A stretch of DNA of 64,000 nt, from positions 2,805 to 66,804 of the forward strand of contig CABUGH010000006.1 of NCBI GenBank assembly GCA_902491155.1, in the 5' to 3' direction. Shown in pieces: positions 24,207 to 38,653 of this stretch. Position 1 is the stretch's first letter. Every line of letters starts with the position of its first letter. The position numbers and the translations under genes were made by a program. This DNA is from an uncultured Clostridium sp. Its GTDB lineage: Bacteria > Bacillota > Clostridia > TANB77 > CAG-508. The notes beneath the pieces were generated by a model that searched no databases, was not told the DNA's origin, and saw only the letters and a list, made by a program, of their open reading frames with translations.

Positions 24207-24950
24207 CTATTGAATTTTTCTTTTTTGAATTCTGTACGTTATTTTAGAAATCAAATTATTTGGAGTTATTTTTGAAAAAAATCTAGCTAGTTTTATATCA
24301 GTTCCAGGTACAATATAGAATTTGTTTTTTTCTAATTTACTTATTGCATATTCTGCTATTTTCATGCTATTTGCTTCTCTTAGATGAAATTTTACATTTG
24401 CAACTTTATTAAAATTTGTATTTACTGGACCAGGGCAAAGTATTGAAATCTTTACATTTGATTTTTCTTGTTTTAATTCTTCTCTTATGCTTTCACTTAA
24501 TCTTACCACATATGATTTTGTTGCGTAATATGTGCTCATAAGTGGACCTGGCATAAAACCTGCAATAGATGAAACATTTAATATTTTACCGCTATTTTTG
24601 TTTTTAAAATTAATCAAATATAATTTTGTTAGAATATGATATGCAATCACATTTGTTTGTATCATTTTTATTTCTTTTTCTAAACTTGTTTTTGTAAAAT
24701 CTCCACAATCACCGAATCCTGCATTATTTACTAATAAATCTATATCTTGGACTTGTTCATATACTTTTTTGCAATTTTCTTCAATTGACAAATCTGTTAC
24801 TATGATTTCTGCTTTTTTTAGTTCTTTAGCTACTTTTTTTAACTTTTCTTCATTTCTTGCTACTAGAACTACTTCGTATCCTTTTTTATCTAAAACTTTA
24901 GCTATATCTCTTCCTATTCCTGAAGACGCCCCTGTTACAAGTGCTTTCAT
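24207..24950 (-). CDS. SDR-family short-chain dehydrogenase/reductase
   Basis: TGASSGIGR cofactor motif, NNAG, and the YxxxK catalytic motif (YYATKSYV). Confidence 0.85.
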   Translation of the reverse strand: MKALVTGASSGIGRDIAKVLDKKGYEVVLVARNEEKLKKVAKELKKAEIIVTDLSIEENCKKVYEQVQDIDLLVNNAGFGDCGDFTKTSLEKEIKMIQTNVIAYHILTKLYLINFKNKNSGKILNVSSIAGFMPGPLMSTYYATKSYVVRLSESIREELKQEKSNVKISILCPGPVNTNFNKVANVKFHLREANSMKIAEYAISKLEKNKFYIVPGTDIKLARFFSKITPNNLISKITYRIQKRKIQ

Positions 24951-24976
24951 ATTCGATTCCTCCTATTTATTTTCTT

Positions 24977-25042
24977 GGTGATTTGGGGACGGAGCAAAAA
25001 TCATTAAAGCTTTAATGATTTTTGCTCCGTCCCCAAATCACC
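24977..25042. repeat. 66-nt perfect palindrome (33-bp arms)
   Basis: GGTGATTTGGGGACGGAGCAAAAATCATTAAAG | CTTTAATGATTTTTGCTCCGTCCCCAAATCACC. Every position from 24977 to 25042 pairs about the 25009/25010 axis. No T-run follows on either strand. Confidence 0.9.
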
Positions 25043-25050
25043 CCAAACAT

Positions 25051-25587
25051 CTATTTTGACATTATTTTTCCTACTGCATGTACTATTTGGGTTGATTTTT
25101 TATTTGCTATTTCTTTACCTATTGCTTTTCCACCTACTGTTAGTGCTGATACCAATGCACTTAGCAAGAATTGCAAGTTAAAATTCAAGCTAAATTGATT
25201 TGTTATTTTGACTGCTATTAATGCACTTATTGCTCCGCTTAATACACCACAAATATCCCCAATAACATCTGCACATATGTTGGCCACCTTTGATGCATTT
25301 TTTATTAATTTTATTGAATTTTTTGATCCTTTGATTTTTTTGGTTGCTTTTGCGTGAAACTCTTCTTCGTTAGCTACAGTAACTGCTACACCAATTATAT
25401 CGAACAAAATACCTATTGCTATTACTAATATTAATATTAAGCATGCTGGTATTAAACTTAGATTTGATACTCCATTTGTTGATACATAAGAAAATATGAT
25501 TGACAATATAAATGTCATTGTAAATACTTGAATGAACCATTTTAATGTTGAGTTTTCCGAGTGTTCCTCTTTTTTATTTTTTTCCAT
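25051..25587 (-). CDS. Small 4-TM membrane protein, OapA-like (OLE-associated protein A candidate)
   Basis: 178 aa with four predicted TM segments and internally repeated motifs LFDIIGVAV and ADVIGDICGV (DxxxD). It lies directly downstream of, and co-oriented with, the large ORF-free structured region. The identification is from remembered OapA properties, not an alignment. Confidence 0.45.
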   Translation of the reverse strand: MEKNKKEEHSENSTLKWFIQVFTMTFILSIIFSYVSTNGVSNLSLIPACLILILVIAIGILFDIIGVAVTVANEEEFHAKATKKIKGSKNSIKLIKNASKVANICADVIGDICGVLSGAISALIAVKITNQFSLNFNLQFLLSALVSALTVGGKAIGKEIANKKSTQIVHAVGKIMSK

Positions 25588-25599
25588 TATTATTTTGCT

Positions 25600-26205
25600 C
25601 CTTTTAAATGTTTTTTATTTGCATTTGTTTTTGATAGTTTTTGATGGTAAAAGTCTAAGTAAATTTTACAGTTTAGGTCTGGTTGAATTTCTCTACCTCC
25701 CGCTTGACATTACTGTCTTAGCCGTTTCCGTTTAAGGGATGCATCTATTTTTACATAGACACCAGATCGCCACTTAAATCTGTACCTTAATCCCTAGACT
25801 TTCATGCTAGTGATAGCAAACATCCTAGAAGTTTTCCTTAACATACAAACCTGTTTTACTAGTCTTTTTTGCAAATATGGTTTCATAATATTGATTATTT
25901 ATGTTTGGCCAAAACGTAAATATCATTTAGAAAATTAATCCCCACACATTCACTCGAGACAGGCTACTCTATGTATTTTGTGTCTTGGCACTCACCATAG
26001 GTTATACTTAAATTCTTCTATTTAAGCCTCCGCGAAAATAGGGAGTCTTATGTATGCCGTTACATAATACCCTAGATTCTTTACTCCCTATACTCACACA
26101 AAACTGGCATTTCGCGCAAATACAAGAAACTTCAACGATGTGCCCTTTAGTGGATTTTTAGCCCCACCCTCGTAGAACATTGTATGACTAGAATAATGCA
26201 CCATC
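25600..26205 (-). ncRNA. Large structured noncoding RNA candidate (OLE-RNA-like by context)
   Basis: About 600 nt with no ORF of 60 aa or more across most of its length on either strand (one + ORF overlaps only the 25600-25735 edge). G+C is about 35-40% against about 25% in flanking DNA. The minus sense has about 2:1 G over C (counted on five 60-nt lines). Nested hairpins include TAGGGAGT/ACTCCCTA (26039-46 / 26083-90) enclosing TTATGTA/TACATAA, and CTTAAAT/ATTTAAG (26007-13 / 26020-26). It has its own promoter upstream. Confidence 0.45.
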
Positions 26206-26212
26206 GATTAAT

Positions 26213-26241
26213 AGTATAACATTTTTTCAAAATTATTCCAA
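26213..26241 (-). promoter_or_regulatory. Sigma-A promoter with extended -10
   Basis: Minus strand reads TTGGAA (26241-26236), 17-nt spacer, TGtTATACT (hexamer at 26218-26213). Confidence 0.6.
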
Positions 26242-26293
26242 ATTTTGTTTTTATTTATTTTTGTCTTTAATTTTTTAGTTTTGCTAATTTTTT

Positions 26294-26431
26294 CTAGTTT
26301 TCTTTGCTTTTCTCGTCTTTTTGGCTTTTTTCTTCATTTTTCTCAATTTTACCATTTTGTATCATTTTATTTATTGAGTCTAATATATCGTCTGAATTTT
26401 CATCAAAATCGTCTTTTACAAGATTAAACAT
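26294..26431 (-). CDS. Possible 45-aa acidic small protein
   Basis: MFNLVKDDFDENSDDILDSINKMIQNGKIEKNEEKSQKDEKSKEN* with AGGAAGTG about 10 nt upstream. It is below the ORF-track cutoff and could be spurious. Confidence 0.25.
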   Translation of the reverse strand: MFNLVKDDFDENSDDILDSINKMIQNGKIEKNEEKSQKDEKSKEN

Positions 26432-26459
26432 TTTTAGTTCACTTCCTTTTATGAGTTAT

Positions 26460-27131
26460 TTATAAAAATTTTTTTATTTCCTTAAAGATTTCCTCATGAA
26501 TATCATCTATTGTACGAATTCTATTATCTTTTATACATTTTATTTCATACCAATTATACTTTTTTGAAACTTTTAATGCTTCATTATAGGCATCTTTTAA
26601 ATGTTCCAAGTTTCTTTCGTGAATATCTTTCTTTTCTTCATTTGTAAATTTGTTTTTTCTGTTTTTCATTAGCTTAATTGCATATTCTGTTGGCATATTC
26701 AAAAATATTATTTGTGTAGGAACTGGTAATCCATACAAATTAAACTCAAAGTCCCATAGCCAGTCTAAAAATTTTTTTCTTTCTTCTGCATCTTCTATTT
26801 TTCCTGCTTGATGTACCATATTTGAAGTAGTATATCTATCTGCTAATATAATTCCTCCATTATTATAATATTTTTCGTATTCTCTCTTAAACGTTACGTA
26901 TCTATCAGCTGCATAAAATGTTGAGGCTATATACGGACTTATTTCTTTAGGATTTTCTGCTAATTCTCCACTTAAATAGATTTTTACTAGTTCTGAACTA
27001 TTACTTTCATAATTAGGAAAACTTACACTTTTATATTCTATTTTTTCTTTTTCAAATCTCCTTTTTAATTCTTCTAATTGAGTTTGCTTTCCACTCGAAT
27101 CAGTTCCTTCAATTACAAATAATTTTCCCAT
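26460..27131 (-). CDS. tmk: Thymidylate (dTMP) kinase
   Basis: P-loop FVIEGTDSSGKQTQ and the ADRY..S..VHQ motif. Length is 223 aa. Confidence 0.8.
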   Translation of the reverse strand: MGKLFVIEGTDSSGKQTQLEELKRRFEKEKIEYKSVSFPNYESNSSELVKIYLSGELAENPKEISPYIASTFYAADRYVTFKREYEKYYNNGGIILADRYTTSNMVHQAGKIEDAEERKKFLDWLWDFEFNLYGLPVPTQIIFLNMPTEYAIKLMKNRKNKFTNEEKKDIHERNLEHLKDAYNEALKVSKKYNWYEIKCIKDNRIRTIDDIHEEIFKEIKKFL

Positions 27132-33124: not shown

Positions 33125-34263
33125 TTATATGAATATGCAATAATTTTTCCAATACTTGAATATAATCCCTATACTTACTGTAGCAAGTAATAGGGACTTT
33201 TGATATTTATATAAAAACTGCGTACATTTTTTATTTTTTTGTTTGTCTAAAAATTTTTTTAAATTTCTCATATTCATTGCCTCATAATCGGTTCTAAAGC
33301 CGAATTTATCATGCAATGCATCTGTTAAATCCGTTCTAATATAATTTGGAATATAATTATCATGGCCTTCTAATTTTACCTCCATATTTCTCAATGTTTC
33401 TATAATATCTGGGGCAGTATATGCTTCTTCTAGATTTTTTTCTAAATATCTGTAAAGCACTAGTGCTAGATAACAAGTAGTGAAGTGGGCTTTTATCATT
33501 TCATCTCTTGTATGATATACTGGTCTTGATTTAAAATCCGTTTTCATAATTCTAAAACTTTCTTCAATTTTCCATATTCTATGATTTACTTTTATGATAT
33601 CTTCGACTGAATCTTCAAGATTTGTGCAAACTGCATAAAGTCCATCGTATCTTGCTTCTTCGTCTATTATACTTTGATTTATTTCATAAATACTTTTATC
33701 TGCTAATTCTCCATCAGTTGTTATGTTCGTTGTTTTTATAAATCTTTTGGGATCGTTTTGTTTTGCTTTTTTTTAATTTTTCTGGGTTGCTTTCTATTAT
33801 TTTCATTGCTCTATGAATTTTTGCTATAATTCCAATGTTTTTAATTTAGATGCTGGATAAATTATTCTTGACTATACTAATTTTGATACAATGTCATTTA
33901 AATCAAATTTGAATTGATATTTCTGTGTTATTGAATCACATATATCATTTATTTTTAATTTATAATAAATATCTTGTAAAAACAAATACCCAACATTAAA
34001 TGAATTTTGTACATTTTTTTCAATTATTTTATTTGGATTTTTTCTTATAATTACTGGCAATGATTCTTCTTTATGTTTTTTATTTAATTCTGATACATAA
34101 TTTTTTAACCATTCTAACGGATCCTCTTCACCTGATCTTTGTCTAATTTTATCAATGTTCCAAGATTTTCATAAATGCAAGTTGTTCTTTTATTATTTTT
34201 ATAGATGTCTTTTATTATTGCGTATTGAATTGTGTTTTTTGTTTTTATTATTCTAATTCTCAT
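33125..34263 (-). mobile_element. Decayed IS1634/IS4-like transposase (pseudogene)
   Basis: N-terminal piece MRIRIIKTKNTIQYAIIKDIYKNNKRTTCIYENLG and C-terminal piece KSRPVYHTRDEMIKAHFTTCYLALVLYRYLE lie in different frames with stops between them. The total span is far shorter than an intact ~1.7-kb gene. Confidence 0.55.
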
Positions 34264-34625: not shown

Positions 34626-35984
34626 TTATCTTATTTTTTCTTGAGTTTCCCAAATATCAGATAAATATATATTTTTTAAACCGTCTTGACTTTTTCCTAA
34701 AGGCACTGAACTTAATTTCACATTTCCCATTTTTAAGCCTTTTTCAATTAATTCGAAATATGCTCTATCTTCTTCTTCAGTTCCTCTCATATTTAGCCCT
34801 TTTAATACAATATCGCCAATTTCTGCATTTCTTATTCCATTTTTTAGTGTTCTTATGTATTTTGGAATTTGATTATCGTTATCTTTAATAGAAAATCTAT
34901 CGCAAACCTCTTTTGCTCTTTTAAAATCTTTACTACAAATCAAATTATTTACAACTGTTCTTATTGACTGTTCCAAATCTCCTCCACACAATTCTTGCAT
35001 TTGTTTAATTGTTACTTTAGGATTTTCTATATGGTATTTTTCTGGTTGTTCCATTAAAACTGTTCTTATTTGTATTAATATTTGTTTTTTTTCTTGTTCC
35101 TCTGTTAATGAAAATCTAGTTTTTGGTTTTTTTTCTATTCTTTTTTTAGCTTCTTTATCAATAATTTTATTTGCTATTTCAGTATCTAATGTGCCATTGG
35201 CTATCTCTGTAATAATAAAAGCTATATCTGTAGGTACATCATTTCTAATTCTATCAAAAACCATCTTCTGATTTATTTTCAATATTTTATTTCCAATTCT
35301 ACTTTTTACAGCTCCTACATAAATTTGATTACTTTGTTGCATTTTTGTTGTTAGCTTTTTTTCCAAAATTTTTAATCCTTGTAAATCTTCTGTTTGCAAT
35401 TGAGCAATATCAATAGCATCTGTTAATTTTTTTACTATTGTTTTTTTAGTTCTATTAATATAAAAATCAATTTTATCTGTTGTATTTAGATTTAATTTTT
35501 CTAATTCTTCTGATTGAATTAAAGAATGTAATTTTTCTGACTGTTCAATAGTTAATTGATAATTTTCTATTTTCTTTATTTTAGTTAATATTACATTAGC
35601 TCCTTTTCTTCTTTCTTTTTTAGAAAGATTTTTCATACCTTTTACTATTTCTTCAATTTCTGTTATTACTGAATTAATCAATTCAATTTCTTGGTTTGTT
35701 AATTCTTTTGGTGTTTTAACCTCTACTTTATCGACTTTAAAAAATAGTCTTTTATATTGTTCTCTCATTTGTTGCATTTTTGAATGAGCTTGTTTATTTT
35801 TATTATCAATTATTTCTCTAGCACTATAAGTTTTTATAGGTTTAGACTTGTTTGTTTTTTCTAATTCCAATTTATATTGCATAATCTCTTCAATTGGTAT
35901 ATCTAATTCAAAAGACATCAATTCTAAATCAAATCCATTCTGTATAAGTTTTTTAATTTCTTCTATTTCGCTATGTTTTATCAT
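34626..35984 (-). CDS. Hypothetical protein; its N-terminal ~45 aa are paralogous to the ORF at 38714-39610
   Basis: 452 aa from the MIKHSEIEE start, which has a GAGGAAA RBS. EEIKKLIQNGFDLELMSFELDIPIEEI aligns with EEIIRLIYNGFDIELLSFELDIPIEKL of the other ORF. The rest is charged and helical with no recognised motif. Confidence 0.6.
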   Translation of the reverse strand: MIKHSEIEEIKKLIQNGFDLELMSFELDIPIEEIMQYKLELEKTNKSKPIKTYSAREIIDNKNKQAHSKMQQMREQYKRLFFKVDKVEVKTPKELTNQEIELINSVITEIEEIVKGMKNLSKKERRKGANVILTKIKKIENYQLTIEQSEKLHSLIQSEELEKLNLNTTDKIDFYINRTKKTIVKKLTDAIDIAQLQTEDLQGLKILEKKLTTKMQQSNQIYVGAVKSRIGNKILKINQKMVFDRIRNDVPTDIAFIITEIANGTLDTEIANKIIDKEAKKRIEKKPKTRFSLTEEQEKKQILIQIRTVLMEQPEKYHIENPKVTIKQMQELCGGDLEQSIRTVVNNLICSKDFKRAKEVCDRFSIKDNDNQIPKYIRTLKNGIRNAEIGDIVLKGLNMRGTEEEDRAYFELIEKGLKMGNVKLSSVPLGKSQDGLKNIYLSDIWETQEKIR

Positions 35985-36120
35985 ATTATCACATTTCCTC
36001 ACTTTTTTGATTTCTTATTTTCATTATGTGTTTTAGAATATATCTTTTGTGAATATCGTAAATTTATTGAAATTATAGCATAACTCAATTGTTTTTTCAA
36101 TAAGTTTTATATTATTTGAA

Positions 36121-37156: not shown

Positions 37157-38515
37157 TTACAAGTCGGTAAAGTCTGAGAAACTTTCAATTTCACTTTCAA
37201 ACATAATAATTTTCTGCAACTCTGAAAGGAAAGTCAAAAGTTTTACTTTTTTACCACTTTCATATTTCTGCACAAAATCATTGACAAATTTTGAAAATTT
37301 CATACGAACTGTCATGGTTTGTTCAATAGGAATGTTAGCTTCTACAAAAATAATATCAAAAGCCATTCTTCCTTTTTTGACAGCTGTACTTGCGATTTCA
37401 ACAATTTGTTTCTGTTCTTTTACAGACATATTGTTTAATCCCATTGCTCCTAAAACATAACGAACTCTTTCCTCAACAGGCTGTGTTTTATCGACACTTG
37501 CTAATGTTTCCTCAAACTCTTTAATTTCTGGCATACATTCCATTTTTACTCTTGGTTTAGGAAAGACTGTTTCATTGAATTTGTCAGTTTTTTCTTCAAA
37601 ATTTGTTGTTGTCTTTTCCACGTCCTGTTTGCTAGAGTTTTCTTCTGTAGAATATTCTTCTACTTCCTTAAAAGAATACTCTTTATACTTTTTAGTTACA
37701 TTCAGAAATGACAGCATTGTTGCTGAATATTCTTTCAGTTTTTCGGAAACCTGTTGTCTAGACCAAATTTTGTCCCACTGTGTATAAAAAACATTTTTAT
37801 TTTTTAGAGCTTTTTCTAATTCTTTCCATGTAATCTTATCAACTTCTGCTGATACTATTATCAAACTTTTAAAGAATTCTTTCCTTTTGTCCATTTCCAA
37901 CCATTTTGCTACTAATTCAGCAAAATGTTCAAAAGAGTTAGATTTTTTTGCAATTTCTTCTAATTTTGGAATATTTATAGTTGGCTCTGACTTTGTCTCT
38001 TTCTTGGGTTCTAACTTTTTGGTGGCTGGTCTGCCTCTCTTCTTTTTTGGCTGTTCCGTCTGTTCAGAGTTTTCATTCTCTGCATTTGTCGGTTCAGACT
38101 GTTCGAAGTTTTCGCTCTCTACATTTGTCTGTTCAGGCTGTTCGGAGTTTTCACTCTCTACATTTGTCTGTTCAAGCTGTTCGGAGTTTTCACTCTCTAC
38201 ATTTGTCTGTTCAATTTTCTCGGAACTTTCTACTCCTACATTTCTCTGTTTAGAGTCATTTTCTGCTTCAACCTGTAAGTCTTCATCTTCTTTGTACTCT
38301 TTCAAGTTCTTACCGTAGTTCAGTTCAATAACTTCACAATGGTTTATTGCATCGATGATAGCCATAGGAGGCTCCCGAAAAACAATCTCCAGTTTTGCTT
38401 CTTTTCCTCTTACTACAATACTACTTGTAGGATTAAAGTCCTGAAAGAATGCTCTAATCAAATGTTCTGCATTCTTTTCTTGTTTAAACTTTACCTTTAC
38501 CCAAAACTTACTCAT
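37157..38515 (-). CDS. Hypothetical protein with acidic 13-aa tandem repeats and an AT-hook-like KKRGRPATKK
   Basis: 452 aa from MSKFWVKV, which has a perfect AAAGGAGAA RBS. Repeats of the form EQTNVESENSEQ(L/P) precede the RGRP core motif. No other motif was recognised. Confidence 0.6.
   Translation of the reverse strand: MSKFWVKVKFKQEKNAEHLIRAFFQDFNPTSSIVVRGKEAKLEIVFREPPMAIIDAINHCEVIELNYGKNLKEYKEDEDLQVEAENDSKQRNVGVESSEKIEQTNVESENSEQLEQTNVESENSEQPEQTNVESENFEQSEPTNAENENSEQTEQPKKKRGRPATKKLEPKKETKSEPTINIPKLEEIAKKSNSFEHFAELVAKWLEMDKRKEFFKSLIIVSAEVDKITWKELEKALKNKNVFYTQWDKIWSRQQVSEKLKEYSATMLSFLNVTKKYKEYSFKEVEEYSTEENSSKQDVEKTTTNFEEKTDKFNETVFPKPRVKMECMPEIKEFEETLASVDKTQPVEERVRYVLGAMGLNNMSVKEQKQIVEIASTAVKKGRMAFDIIFVEANIPIEQTMTVRMKFSKFVNDFVQKYESGKKVKLLTFLSELQKIIMFESEIESFSDFTDL
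38053..38247. repeat. 39-bp tandem repeat x5 (in frame, inside the CDS)
   Basis: Units at 38053, 38092, 38131, 38170 and 38209. The central three are nearly identical (gttcaRgctgttcggagttttcactctctacatttgtct) and the outer two are degenerate. Confidence 0.85.
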
Positions 38516-38653
38516 CGTGTTTCTCCTTTCATTGTTAAAAGTTTTTAATAGGTACAAATGTATCTTGGTATTTCCATGATCTTTCAATATTTAGCAAATT
38601 AAACAATTGCCAAAATATAATAAATACACTGGAAATCTTCCAATACAGCTAAT

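Follow-up and report, generated by a model that had tools for sequence, protein, structure and literature searches.

A 563-nt RNA upstream of a 178-aa membrane protein gene is very probably a trimmed OLE RNA with its oapA partner

Does a stretch of DNA that is free of open reading frames, comparatively rich in GC and set directly before a gene for a small membrane protein encode a large structured RNA, and if so, of which class? This question was raised by a locus on the minus strand of a 64,000-nt stretch of DNA, which was analysed as a whole and is called the window here. A sequence-only reading had proposed that an OLE (ornate, large, extremophilic) RNA is followed at this place by oapA, and both decisive tests of that proposal, the OLE covariance model and the homology of the 178-aa protein, turned out positive. 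We thus hold it to be very probable that 26205-25643 (-) is an OLE RNA gene and 25587-25051 the oapA gene for its membrane partner, the RNA being of a trimmed form. In the order of the minus strand, the locus comprises:

27131-26460 (-): tmk-like gene
26431-26294 (-): ORF of 45 aa, followed by a 706-nt ORF-free stretch
26241-26213 (-): predicted ole promoter of sigma-70 type, from a consensus scan and from its position, which is kept in relatives
26205-25643 (-): RNA of 563 nt assigned to OLE, bounded by a terminal helix; the Rfam match is slightly wider (25628-26220)
25603-25598 (-): AAGGAG at 10 nt from the ATG of oapA, a putative ribosome-binding site
25587-25051 (-): ORF of 178 aa, assigned to oapA by homology to OLE-adjacent ORFs, encoding a membrane protein of ~20 kDa
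25042-24977 (no strand): perfect 66-nt palindrome with 33-bp arms and no spacer, just past the oapA stop and before the SDR gene
24950-24207 (-): SDR gene
thereafter (-): dinB-type polymerase gene

The composition of the region had been part of the argument for an RNA, and this part stood only in places. Between the start of oapA (25587) and the 45-aa ORF, ORFs of at least 60 aa are indeed absent from both strands along the 706 nt, with the exception of a plus-strand ORF (25532-25735) that clips the edge. The gap between tmk and oapA had been put at about 600 nt; it measures 872 nt and also contains the 45-aa ORF. The enrichment in GC was borne out, with 35.8% at 25628-26220 vs. 26.6% in the whole window, and 36% GC is attained by only 0.4% of all 593-nt windows (sd 3.0%). 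An excess of G over C of roughly 2:1 in the minus sense had to be corrected to 1.44:1. This value is not distinctive, given that the ratio is 1.31 in the whole window and 1.87 in tmk, and that 1.44 is matched or exceeded in 46% of windows of this size. The skew reflects the background composition of the strand and is no property of the RNA.

Elsewhere in the window, the second most GC-rich stretch (37851-38475, up to 41% GC) lies within a 476-aa ORF (37157-38587, minus strand). Neither this ORF nor its neighbours of 458 aa (34626-36002) and 140 aa (33125-33547) matched a Pfam family.

The RNA and its conserved fold

To classify the RNA, the whole window was scanned with the 4227 families of Rfam. 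RF01071, the OLE family, matches 25628-26220 (-) over its full length (model positions 1-616 of 616, untruncated) with 342.7 bits and an E-value of 5.2e-97, the gathering score of this family being 50. Apart from tRNAs, OLE is the sole match in the window. The sequence-only reading had named ROOL, GOLLD, raiA and RNase P, besides OLE, as models to be run over the region by cmsearch; each of these four is without a match at the OLE stretch, and OLE alone was found. Its fallback idea of an unclassified large structured RNA is not needed, since the match to RF01071 is full length.

The ends of the RNA are set by a terminal helix between 5'-GAUGGU (26205-26200) and ACCAUC-3' (25648-25643), in which an AU pair is changed to GC in two species (columns 4/695). 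Independently of Rfam, we folded a clade alignment that consists of the window copy and 16 orthologues of related species (17 sequences in total). For this clade alone, RNAalifold predicted 153 pairs, 41 of which show compensatory changes, the terminal helix included; these are counts, to which no R-scape significance value is attached. Stem names were transferred to the alignment from published OLE models (PMC9723947, PMC7936274, PMC12286853). By these names, the window copy keeps the P4a hairpin, the J4a/5 core, P5, P6, P8, P9, P10-P12, P14 and P14.1. The elements that matter most for what follows are:

26148-26136 (-): J4a/5 core AAAGGGCACAUCG, an exact match to the Rfam consensus
26027-26006 (-): shortened P7, an 8-bp hairpin GCUUAAAU-AGAAGA-AUUUAAGU of about 24 nt, from the Rfam alignment and clade covariation
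25910-25907 (-): palindromic loop L9.3, GGCC, present in the window copy and in most clade members
25760-25743 (-): variant P13, a 6-bp AU-rich hairpin GUCUAU-GUAAAA-AUAGAU without a GNRA tetraloop, from clade comparison
25717-25706 (-): tip of P14.1, GACA-GUAA-UGUC, with a GNRA tetraloop; CAGUAAUG is conserved across the clade

The J4a/5 core is among the most conserved stretches of OLE. In the systems studied so far it is part of the k-turn that forms the OapC site (PMC9723947, PMC12286853), while the GGCC of L9.3 is the kissing-loop contact of the OLE homodimer (PMC12286853) and the GNRA tetraloop of P14.1 acts as a weak secondary OapB site (PMC7936274).

Three perfect hairpins had been pointed out in the region, all of which exist in the sequence. 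Two of them belong to the conserved fold, namely 26048-54/26061-67, which is the tip of P6, and 26007-13/26020-26, which is the shortened P7. The third one, 26039-46/26083-90, lies outside of it: its arms belong to the 3' strands of P5 and P6, and the hairpin is supported neither by Rfam nor by the clade alignment. A variable base beside this hairpin covaries with its partner in P5 and is paired in 17/17 sequences; if the same base is set against the 3' strand of P6, pairing fails in 6/17 sequences, as judged by eye.

Two readings that would leave the locus without an OLE RNA were weighed against these results. According to one of them, a different class of large RNA, be it ROOL, GOLLD, raiA, RNase P or an unclassified one, merely resembles OLE. 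We consider the probability of this negligible and count the reading as refuted: a permissive Rfam scan of 24900-26500 with E-values of up to 1 placed only OLE on the RNA stretch and no second family, and all remaining sub-threshold matches lie on the 66-nt palindrome, far under their gathering scores. Just as minute is the chance that a protein-coding gene has decayed here or that the region is plain intergenic DNA, its GC content and hairpins being incidental. Such an origin would fit the G-over-C skew, which is the same as that of the flanking coding DNA, as well as the one hairpin outside the conserved structure. However, decayed or plain intergenic DNA is at odds with a full-model covariance match at E 5e-97, with compensatory changes at 41 base pairs and with long identical RNA stretches in species whose flanking proteins are only ~70% identical, and this reading is counted as refuted as well. 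The OLE assignment is the one retained, and in itself it is not an extraordinary one. The RNA is an ordinary member of an already catalogued family, a known RNA beside a known partner gene, in a form that has already been described. Its nearest loci come from Clostridium sp. CAG:780 and from MAGs that bear the titles uncultured Clostridium sp. or Clostridia bacterium, which may indirectly fit the anaerobic or extremophilic Bacillota expected as hosts of OLE. An exact 51-mer taken from its P9 region had no match among the species-representative genomes of GTDB.

The membrane protein encoded downstream

Scanned with Pfam and NCBIfam, the 178-aa protein matched no family at E 0.01 or better, the match to the CNNM family PF01595 being sub-threshold (E 0.012, 15.8 bits). 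Since OapA is without a curated model, its membership was tested by synteny-anchored homology. A search with the core motif AAAGGGCACATCGNTGAAGTT in species-representative genomes gave at least 120 OLE loci from Bacillota, and 101 of the listed loci had room for a downstream gene. Among the matches listed, the first ORF past the OLE core is homologous to the 178-aa protein in 99 of 101 other genomes, with E-values from 1e-28 to 1e-94 and identities from 34% to 80%; the genera among these listed homologues include Lederbergia, Virgibacillus, Paenibacillus, Alicyclobacillus, Alkaliphilus and Caloramator. Compared with OapA of Bacillaceae, the protein of the window is only 36-45% identical.

The identification as OapA, already suggested by the sequence-only reading, is upheld by this homology and by the invariance of the DxxxD motif. 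Both motifs that had been noticed, FDIIGV and ADVIGDICGV, are present in the protein. In an alignment of 94 sequences, D63, D107, G110, D111, G118, K154 and K158 are invariant, and the window protein has all 13 residues that are conserved in at least 95% of the sequences. DxxxD corresponds to D107-V-I-G-D111, with both aspartates invariant in 94/94 sequences. This motif is described as a hallmark of OapA that is absent from CNNM domains (PMC11332333).

The AlphaFold2 model, of moderate confidence (pLDDT 72), comprises four long helices at residues 8-38, 45-80, 98-132 and 137-163; a simple hydropathy scan gave only three strong peaks. With Foldseek, the best matches in the PDB were the archaeal CNNM protein MtCorB (7m1t/7m1u) and the membrane domain of bacterial CorC (7cff/7cfg), with probabilities of 0.93-1.00 and TM scores of 0.41-0.55, yet with weak E-values of 0.02-0.6. 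A sequence search of the PDB gave LolE at chance level only (E 0.11) and hence no sequence relative with a solved structure. As far as the model goes, the predicted fold best matches the membrane domains of CNNM/CorB Mg2+ transporters, and the same relationship to CNNM proteins was reported for OapA of Halalkalibacterium halodurans (PMC11332333). The protein would thus be similar to the CNNM transporters MpfA, CorB and CorC in its fold match and its four long hydrophobic helices, but it differs from CNNM domains in the invariant DxxxD and from MpfA in the lack of CBS and CorC_HlyC domains.

Two observations on individual loci of this survey should be mentioned. In one record titled Pseudomonas sp. 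ISL-84 (JAGGRA010000014.1), the core motif of OLE is accompanied by an OapA resembling those of Bacillaceae (E 3e-41). This record probably represents a contaminated or mislabelled assembly, and the rare OLE matches outside Bacillota are described in the literature as resembling artefacts of assembly or transfer. In two related MAGs (L040:5916-6408 and L081:922-1415, in OLE orientation), oapA lies in two pieces in two frames, which suggests a frameshift, caused by a sequencing error or marking a pseudogene.

A trimmed form without the canonical P13

Compared to full-length OLE, as represented by the models from H. halodurans and Clostridium acetobutylicum (Rfam RF01071), the RNA of the window matches the full model and keeps P9 with its GGCC loop, the J4a/5 core, P14/P14.1 and the terminal helix, and oapA follows directly downstream. 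It differs from this form as follows: P7 is reduced to an 8-bp hairpin, P13 has neither a GNRA tetraloop nor a fixed geometry, so that the primary OapB site is missing, and the RNA is AU-rich, with 36% GC vs. a median of 48% in other loci.

The reduction of P7 is seen in the Rfam alignment as a deletion of ~32 model positions. The anchors J6/7 and J7/8 are spaced by 31 nt in the window copy, the median of other OLE loci being 60. Most close relatives share this trait with a spacing of 27-36 nt, and the pairs of the shortened stem are maintained through compensatory changes in the clade. The same holds for the stem of the variant P13, which is preserved via compensatory changes too. The GNRA tetraloop at its end, in contrast, is found in 0/18 clade loci vs. 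83/89 other OLE loci, and the length of the P13 segment, fixed in 76/89 of the other loci, ranges between 37 and 59 nt within the clade. In full-length OLE, it is this tetraloop of P13, together with a bulge of a single nucleotide, that forms the primary OapB site (PMC7936274).

A trimmed OLE of this kind was described as variant 1 by Fernando and Breaker (2024). Variant 1 has a shortened P7, P8 and P9, and its P13 ends without the nucleotides to which OapB binds; it is found in uncultured gut Clostridia with small genomes and is commonest in TANB77, an uncultured gut order that is largely without OapB and OapC (PMC11332333). The clade of the window may belong to TANB77 as well, although the paper on this order makes no mention of CAG-780. 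The window copy resembles this variant in its shortened P7, in a P13 tip that lacks the nucleotides for OapB binding and in its setting, which is low-GC host DNA (26.6%) with closest relatives among uncultured MAGs labelled Clostridium or Clostridia. However, the spacing is reduced neither at P8 (36 nt vs. a median of 37.5) nor at P9 (86 nt vs. a median of 88). Since P8 and P9 are not shortened here, the fit to variant 1, judged by sequence comparison, is a partial one. The missing P13 site suggests a particle that makes no canonical use of OapB, and the particle here probably works without OapB at that site.

Promoter, transcription unit and neighbourhood

Directly before the RNA, an extended -10 promoter had been read as TTGGAA-17-TGtTATACT, and exactly this sequence is present at 26241-26213: the -35 element TTGGAA at 26241-26236 is followed by a 17-nt spacer and the extended -10 element TGtTATACT at 26221-26213. 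The predicted start at ~26205 coincides with the first conserved nucleotides, GAUGGUGCA. As for promoter-like sites in general, 9 were found in the region vs. 8.7 expected from shuffles. A TTGnAA-17-TATAAT arrangement occurs at equal distance from the OLE core in 16/16 related species, with the -10 element ending 63-65 nt upstream, and the DNA upstream of the promoter cannot be aligned among these species. Because its position is kept in 16/16 related species, the predicted promoter is real in the comparative sense. Here the clade differs from H. halodurans, where ole lies inside a long polycistronic transcript (PMC12265935).

The oapA gene starts 55 nt past the conserved 3' end of ole and has the same orientation. 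A terminator scan of 24800-26600 gave 0 sites, hence none was detected between the two genes. Since no terminator-like site separates them and oapA is preceded by an AAGGAG site, we infer that ole and oapA are likely to form one transcription unit which is read from the ole promoter. Among close relatives, the distance from the 3' end of ole to oapA ranges from ~10 to ~270 nt.

The 66-nt palindrome past oapA folds with a dG of -56.9 kcal/mol (z -11.8) and is without a U-tract. No second copy occurs in the window, while four strain-level contigs carry an identical one. The palindrome may mark the 3' end of the ole-oapA transcript or stabilise it. Sub-threshold Rfam matches on the palindrome, to microRNA precursors and the like, were dismissed as generic matches to a long hairpin. 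Likewise, the core GGGGACRG was rejected as a repeated element of the window, being confined there to the two arms of the palindrome. In related species, GC-rich palindromes with a GGGGAC(G/A)G core occur at differing positions around ole-oapA, either past oapA or between both genes (loci L005, L056, L016, L007 and L008), including a 125-nt hairpin with this core in L005. They hint that such intergenic palindromes form a family found throughout the clade. In one metagenome contig (L124, 3537-3608), which is a fold-back chimera, the hinge lies exactly at the palindrome.

A transcription unit of this kind invites another explanation, namely that the RNA acts purely in cis, as a long structured 5' leader which regulates oapA in the manner of a riboswitch or attenuator, and is no component of a stand-alone particle. 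A promoter immediately upstream of the RNA, the shared orientation of RNA and oapA without a terminator between them, and the hairpin-plus-U-run elements that some relatives carry in the spacer (L005, L008, L064, L076) are all what such a leader would call for. We nevertheless regard it as quite improbable. An architecture of 560-600 nt is kept across Bacillota in spite of quite different transcript contexts and spacer lengths, the latter being ~10 to ~270 nt in the close relatives. Furthermore, the RNA of H. halodurans is an abundant discrete species that binds OapA, OapB and OapC and is localised at the membrane (PMC12265935), and OLE RNA alone assembles into an ordered homodimer (PMC12286853). 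An OLE RNA that serves in a particle is thus the preferred reading for the window as well.

The neighbourhood of the locus departs from that of other OLE genes, which usually comprises ispA, dxs, xseAB and others (PMC12265935), whereas tmk, an SDR gene, dinB and topA are the neighbours here; the usual ones are absent around this locus in the window. Many species-level relatives share the order tmk - ole - oapA - SDR - dinB - DUF6514 - topA, their proteins being ~60-85% identical. Further upstream, an HD-domain gene, a dicarboxylate symporter gene, a radical-SAM gene, a CmpB-like gene and a GGDEF gene follow. The exact OapA sequence was found in 238 index blocks of public metagenome assemblies. 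Of the metagenome contigs inspected, 4/4 share the arrangement of tmk, 45-aa ORF, oapA and HD gene with the window, and 3/4 run on into SDR, dinB, DUF6514 and topA.

Two of these neighbours deserve a comment of their own. The tmk-like protein (26460-27131, minus strand) matches the Pfam family Thymidylate_kin (E 7e-18), but falls under both NCBIfam equivalog cut-offs for dTMP kinase (94 vs. 193 bits and 65 vs. 83 bits); since it also gave a weak match to deoxynucleoside kinases, its exact substrate is uncertain. The 45-aa ORF (26294-26431, minus strand) has a good ribosome-binding site, begins with MFNLVKDDFDENSDDILDSINKM and ends in a tail rich in K and E. It matches no Pfam or NCBIfam family, and over its first ~25 residues the identity is 75-92% in most of the related species that have the ORF. 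In the four relatives with a placeable tmk (L090, L007, L040, L064), it lies directly upstream of tmk, and in L064 it is even fused to tmk in frame. In the window it lies downstream of tmk, so that the small gene has changed sides relative to these relatives.

What does this copy mean for OLE biology? Among the bacterial RNAs to which the field has yet to assign a biochemical role, OLE is one of the largest and best conserved, and for this reason its correct annotation matters for the genome record. In H. halodurans and C. acetobutylicum, OLE RNA forms a homodimer and a CNNM-like four-helix OapA takes the RNA to the membrane (PMC12265935, PMC12286853, PMC11332333); the OLE particle has roles under stress by alcohols, cold, excess Mg2+ and poor carbon sources (PMC12265935, PMC12286853, PMC10898510). 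By homology with these studied systems, the RNA of the window would fold and dimerise, dimers of OapA would bind it and hold it at the membrane, and the resulting particle may aid the adaptation to stresses such as these.

As a single record the copy adds little, given that any Rfam-based pipeline finds OLE here and the trimmed form is known from gut Clostridia. It is of modest value as part of a natural deletion series, in which P7 and the OapB site of P13 are dispensable. What is kept comprises the J4a/5 core, the GGCC loop of P9.3, P14.1 and the DxxxD of OapA. In addition, the ole gene of this clade has its own conserved promoter and is set among genes of DNA metabolism. It is conceivable, and we put it forward tentatively, that OLE of this widespread lineage of uncultured gut Clostridia is a naturally minimised particle. 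Its RNA would be transcribed from a promoter of its own and form the 5' portion of the oapA mRNA, and the particle would do without OapB docking at P13. The trimmed RNA itself is already published; new in this case would be just two points, the transcription unit and the independence from OapB. If true, the RNA core and OapA alone would carry the essential activity, and the lineage would provide a compact natural system for working out the function of OLE.
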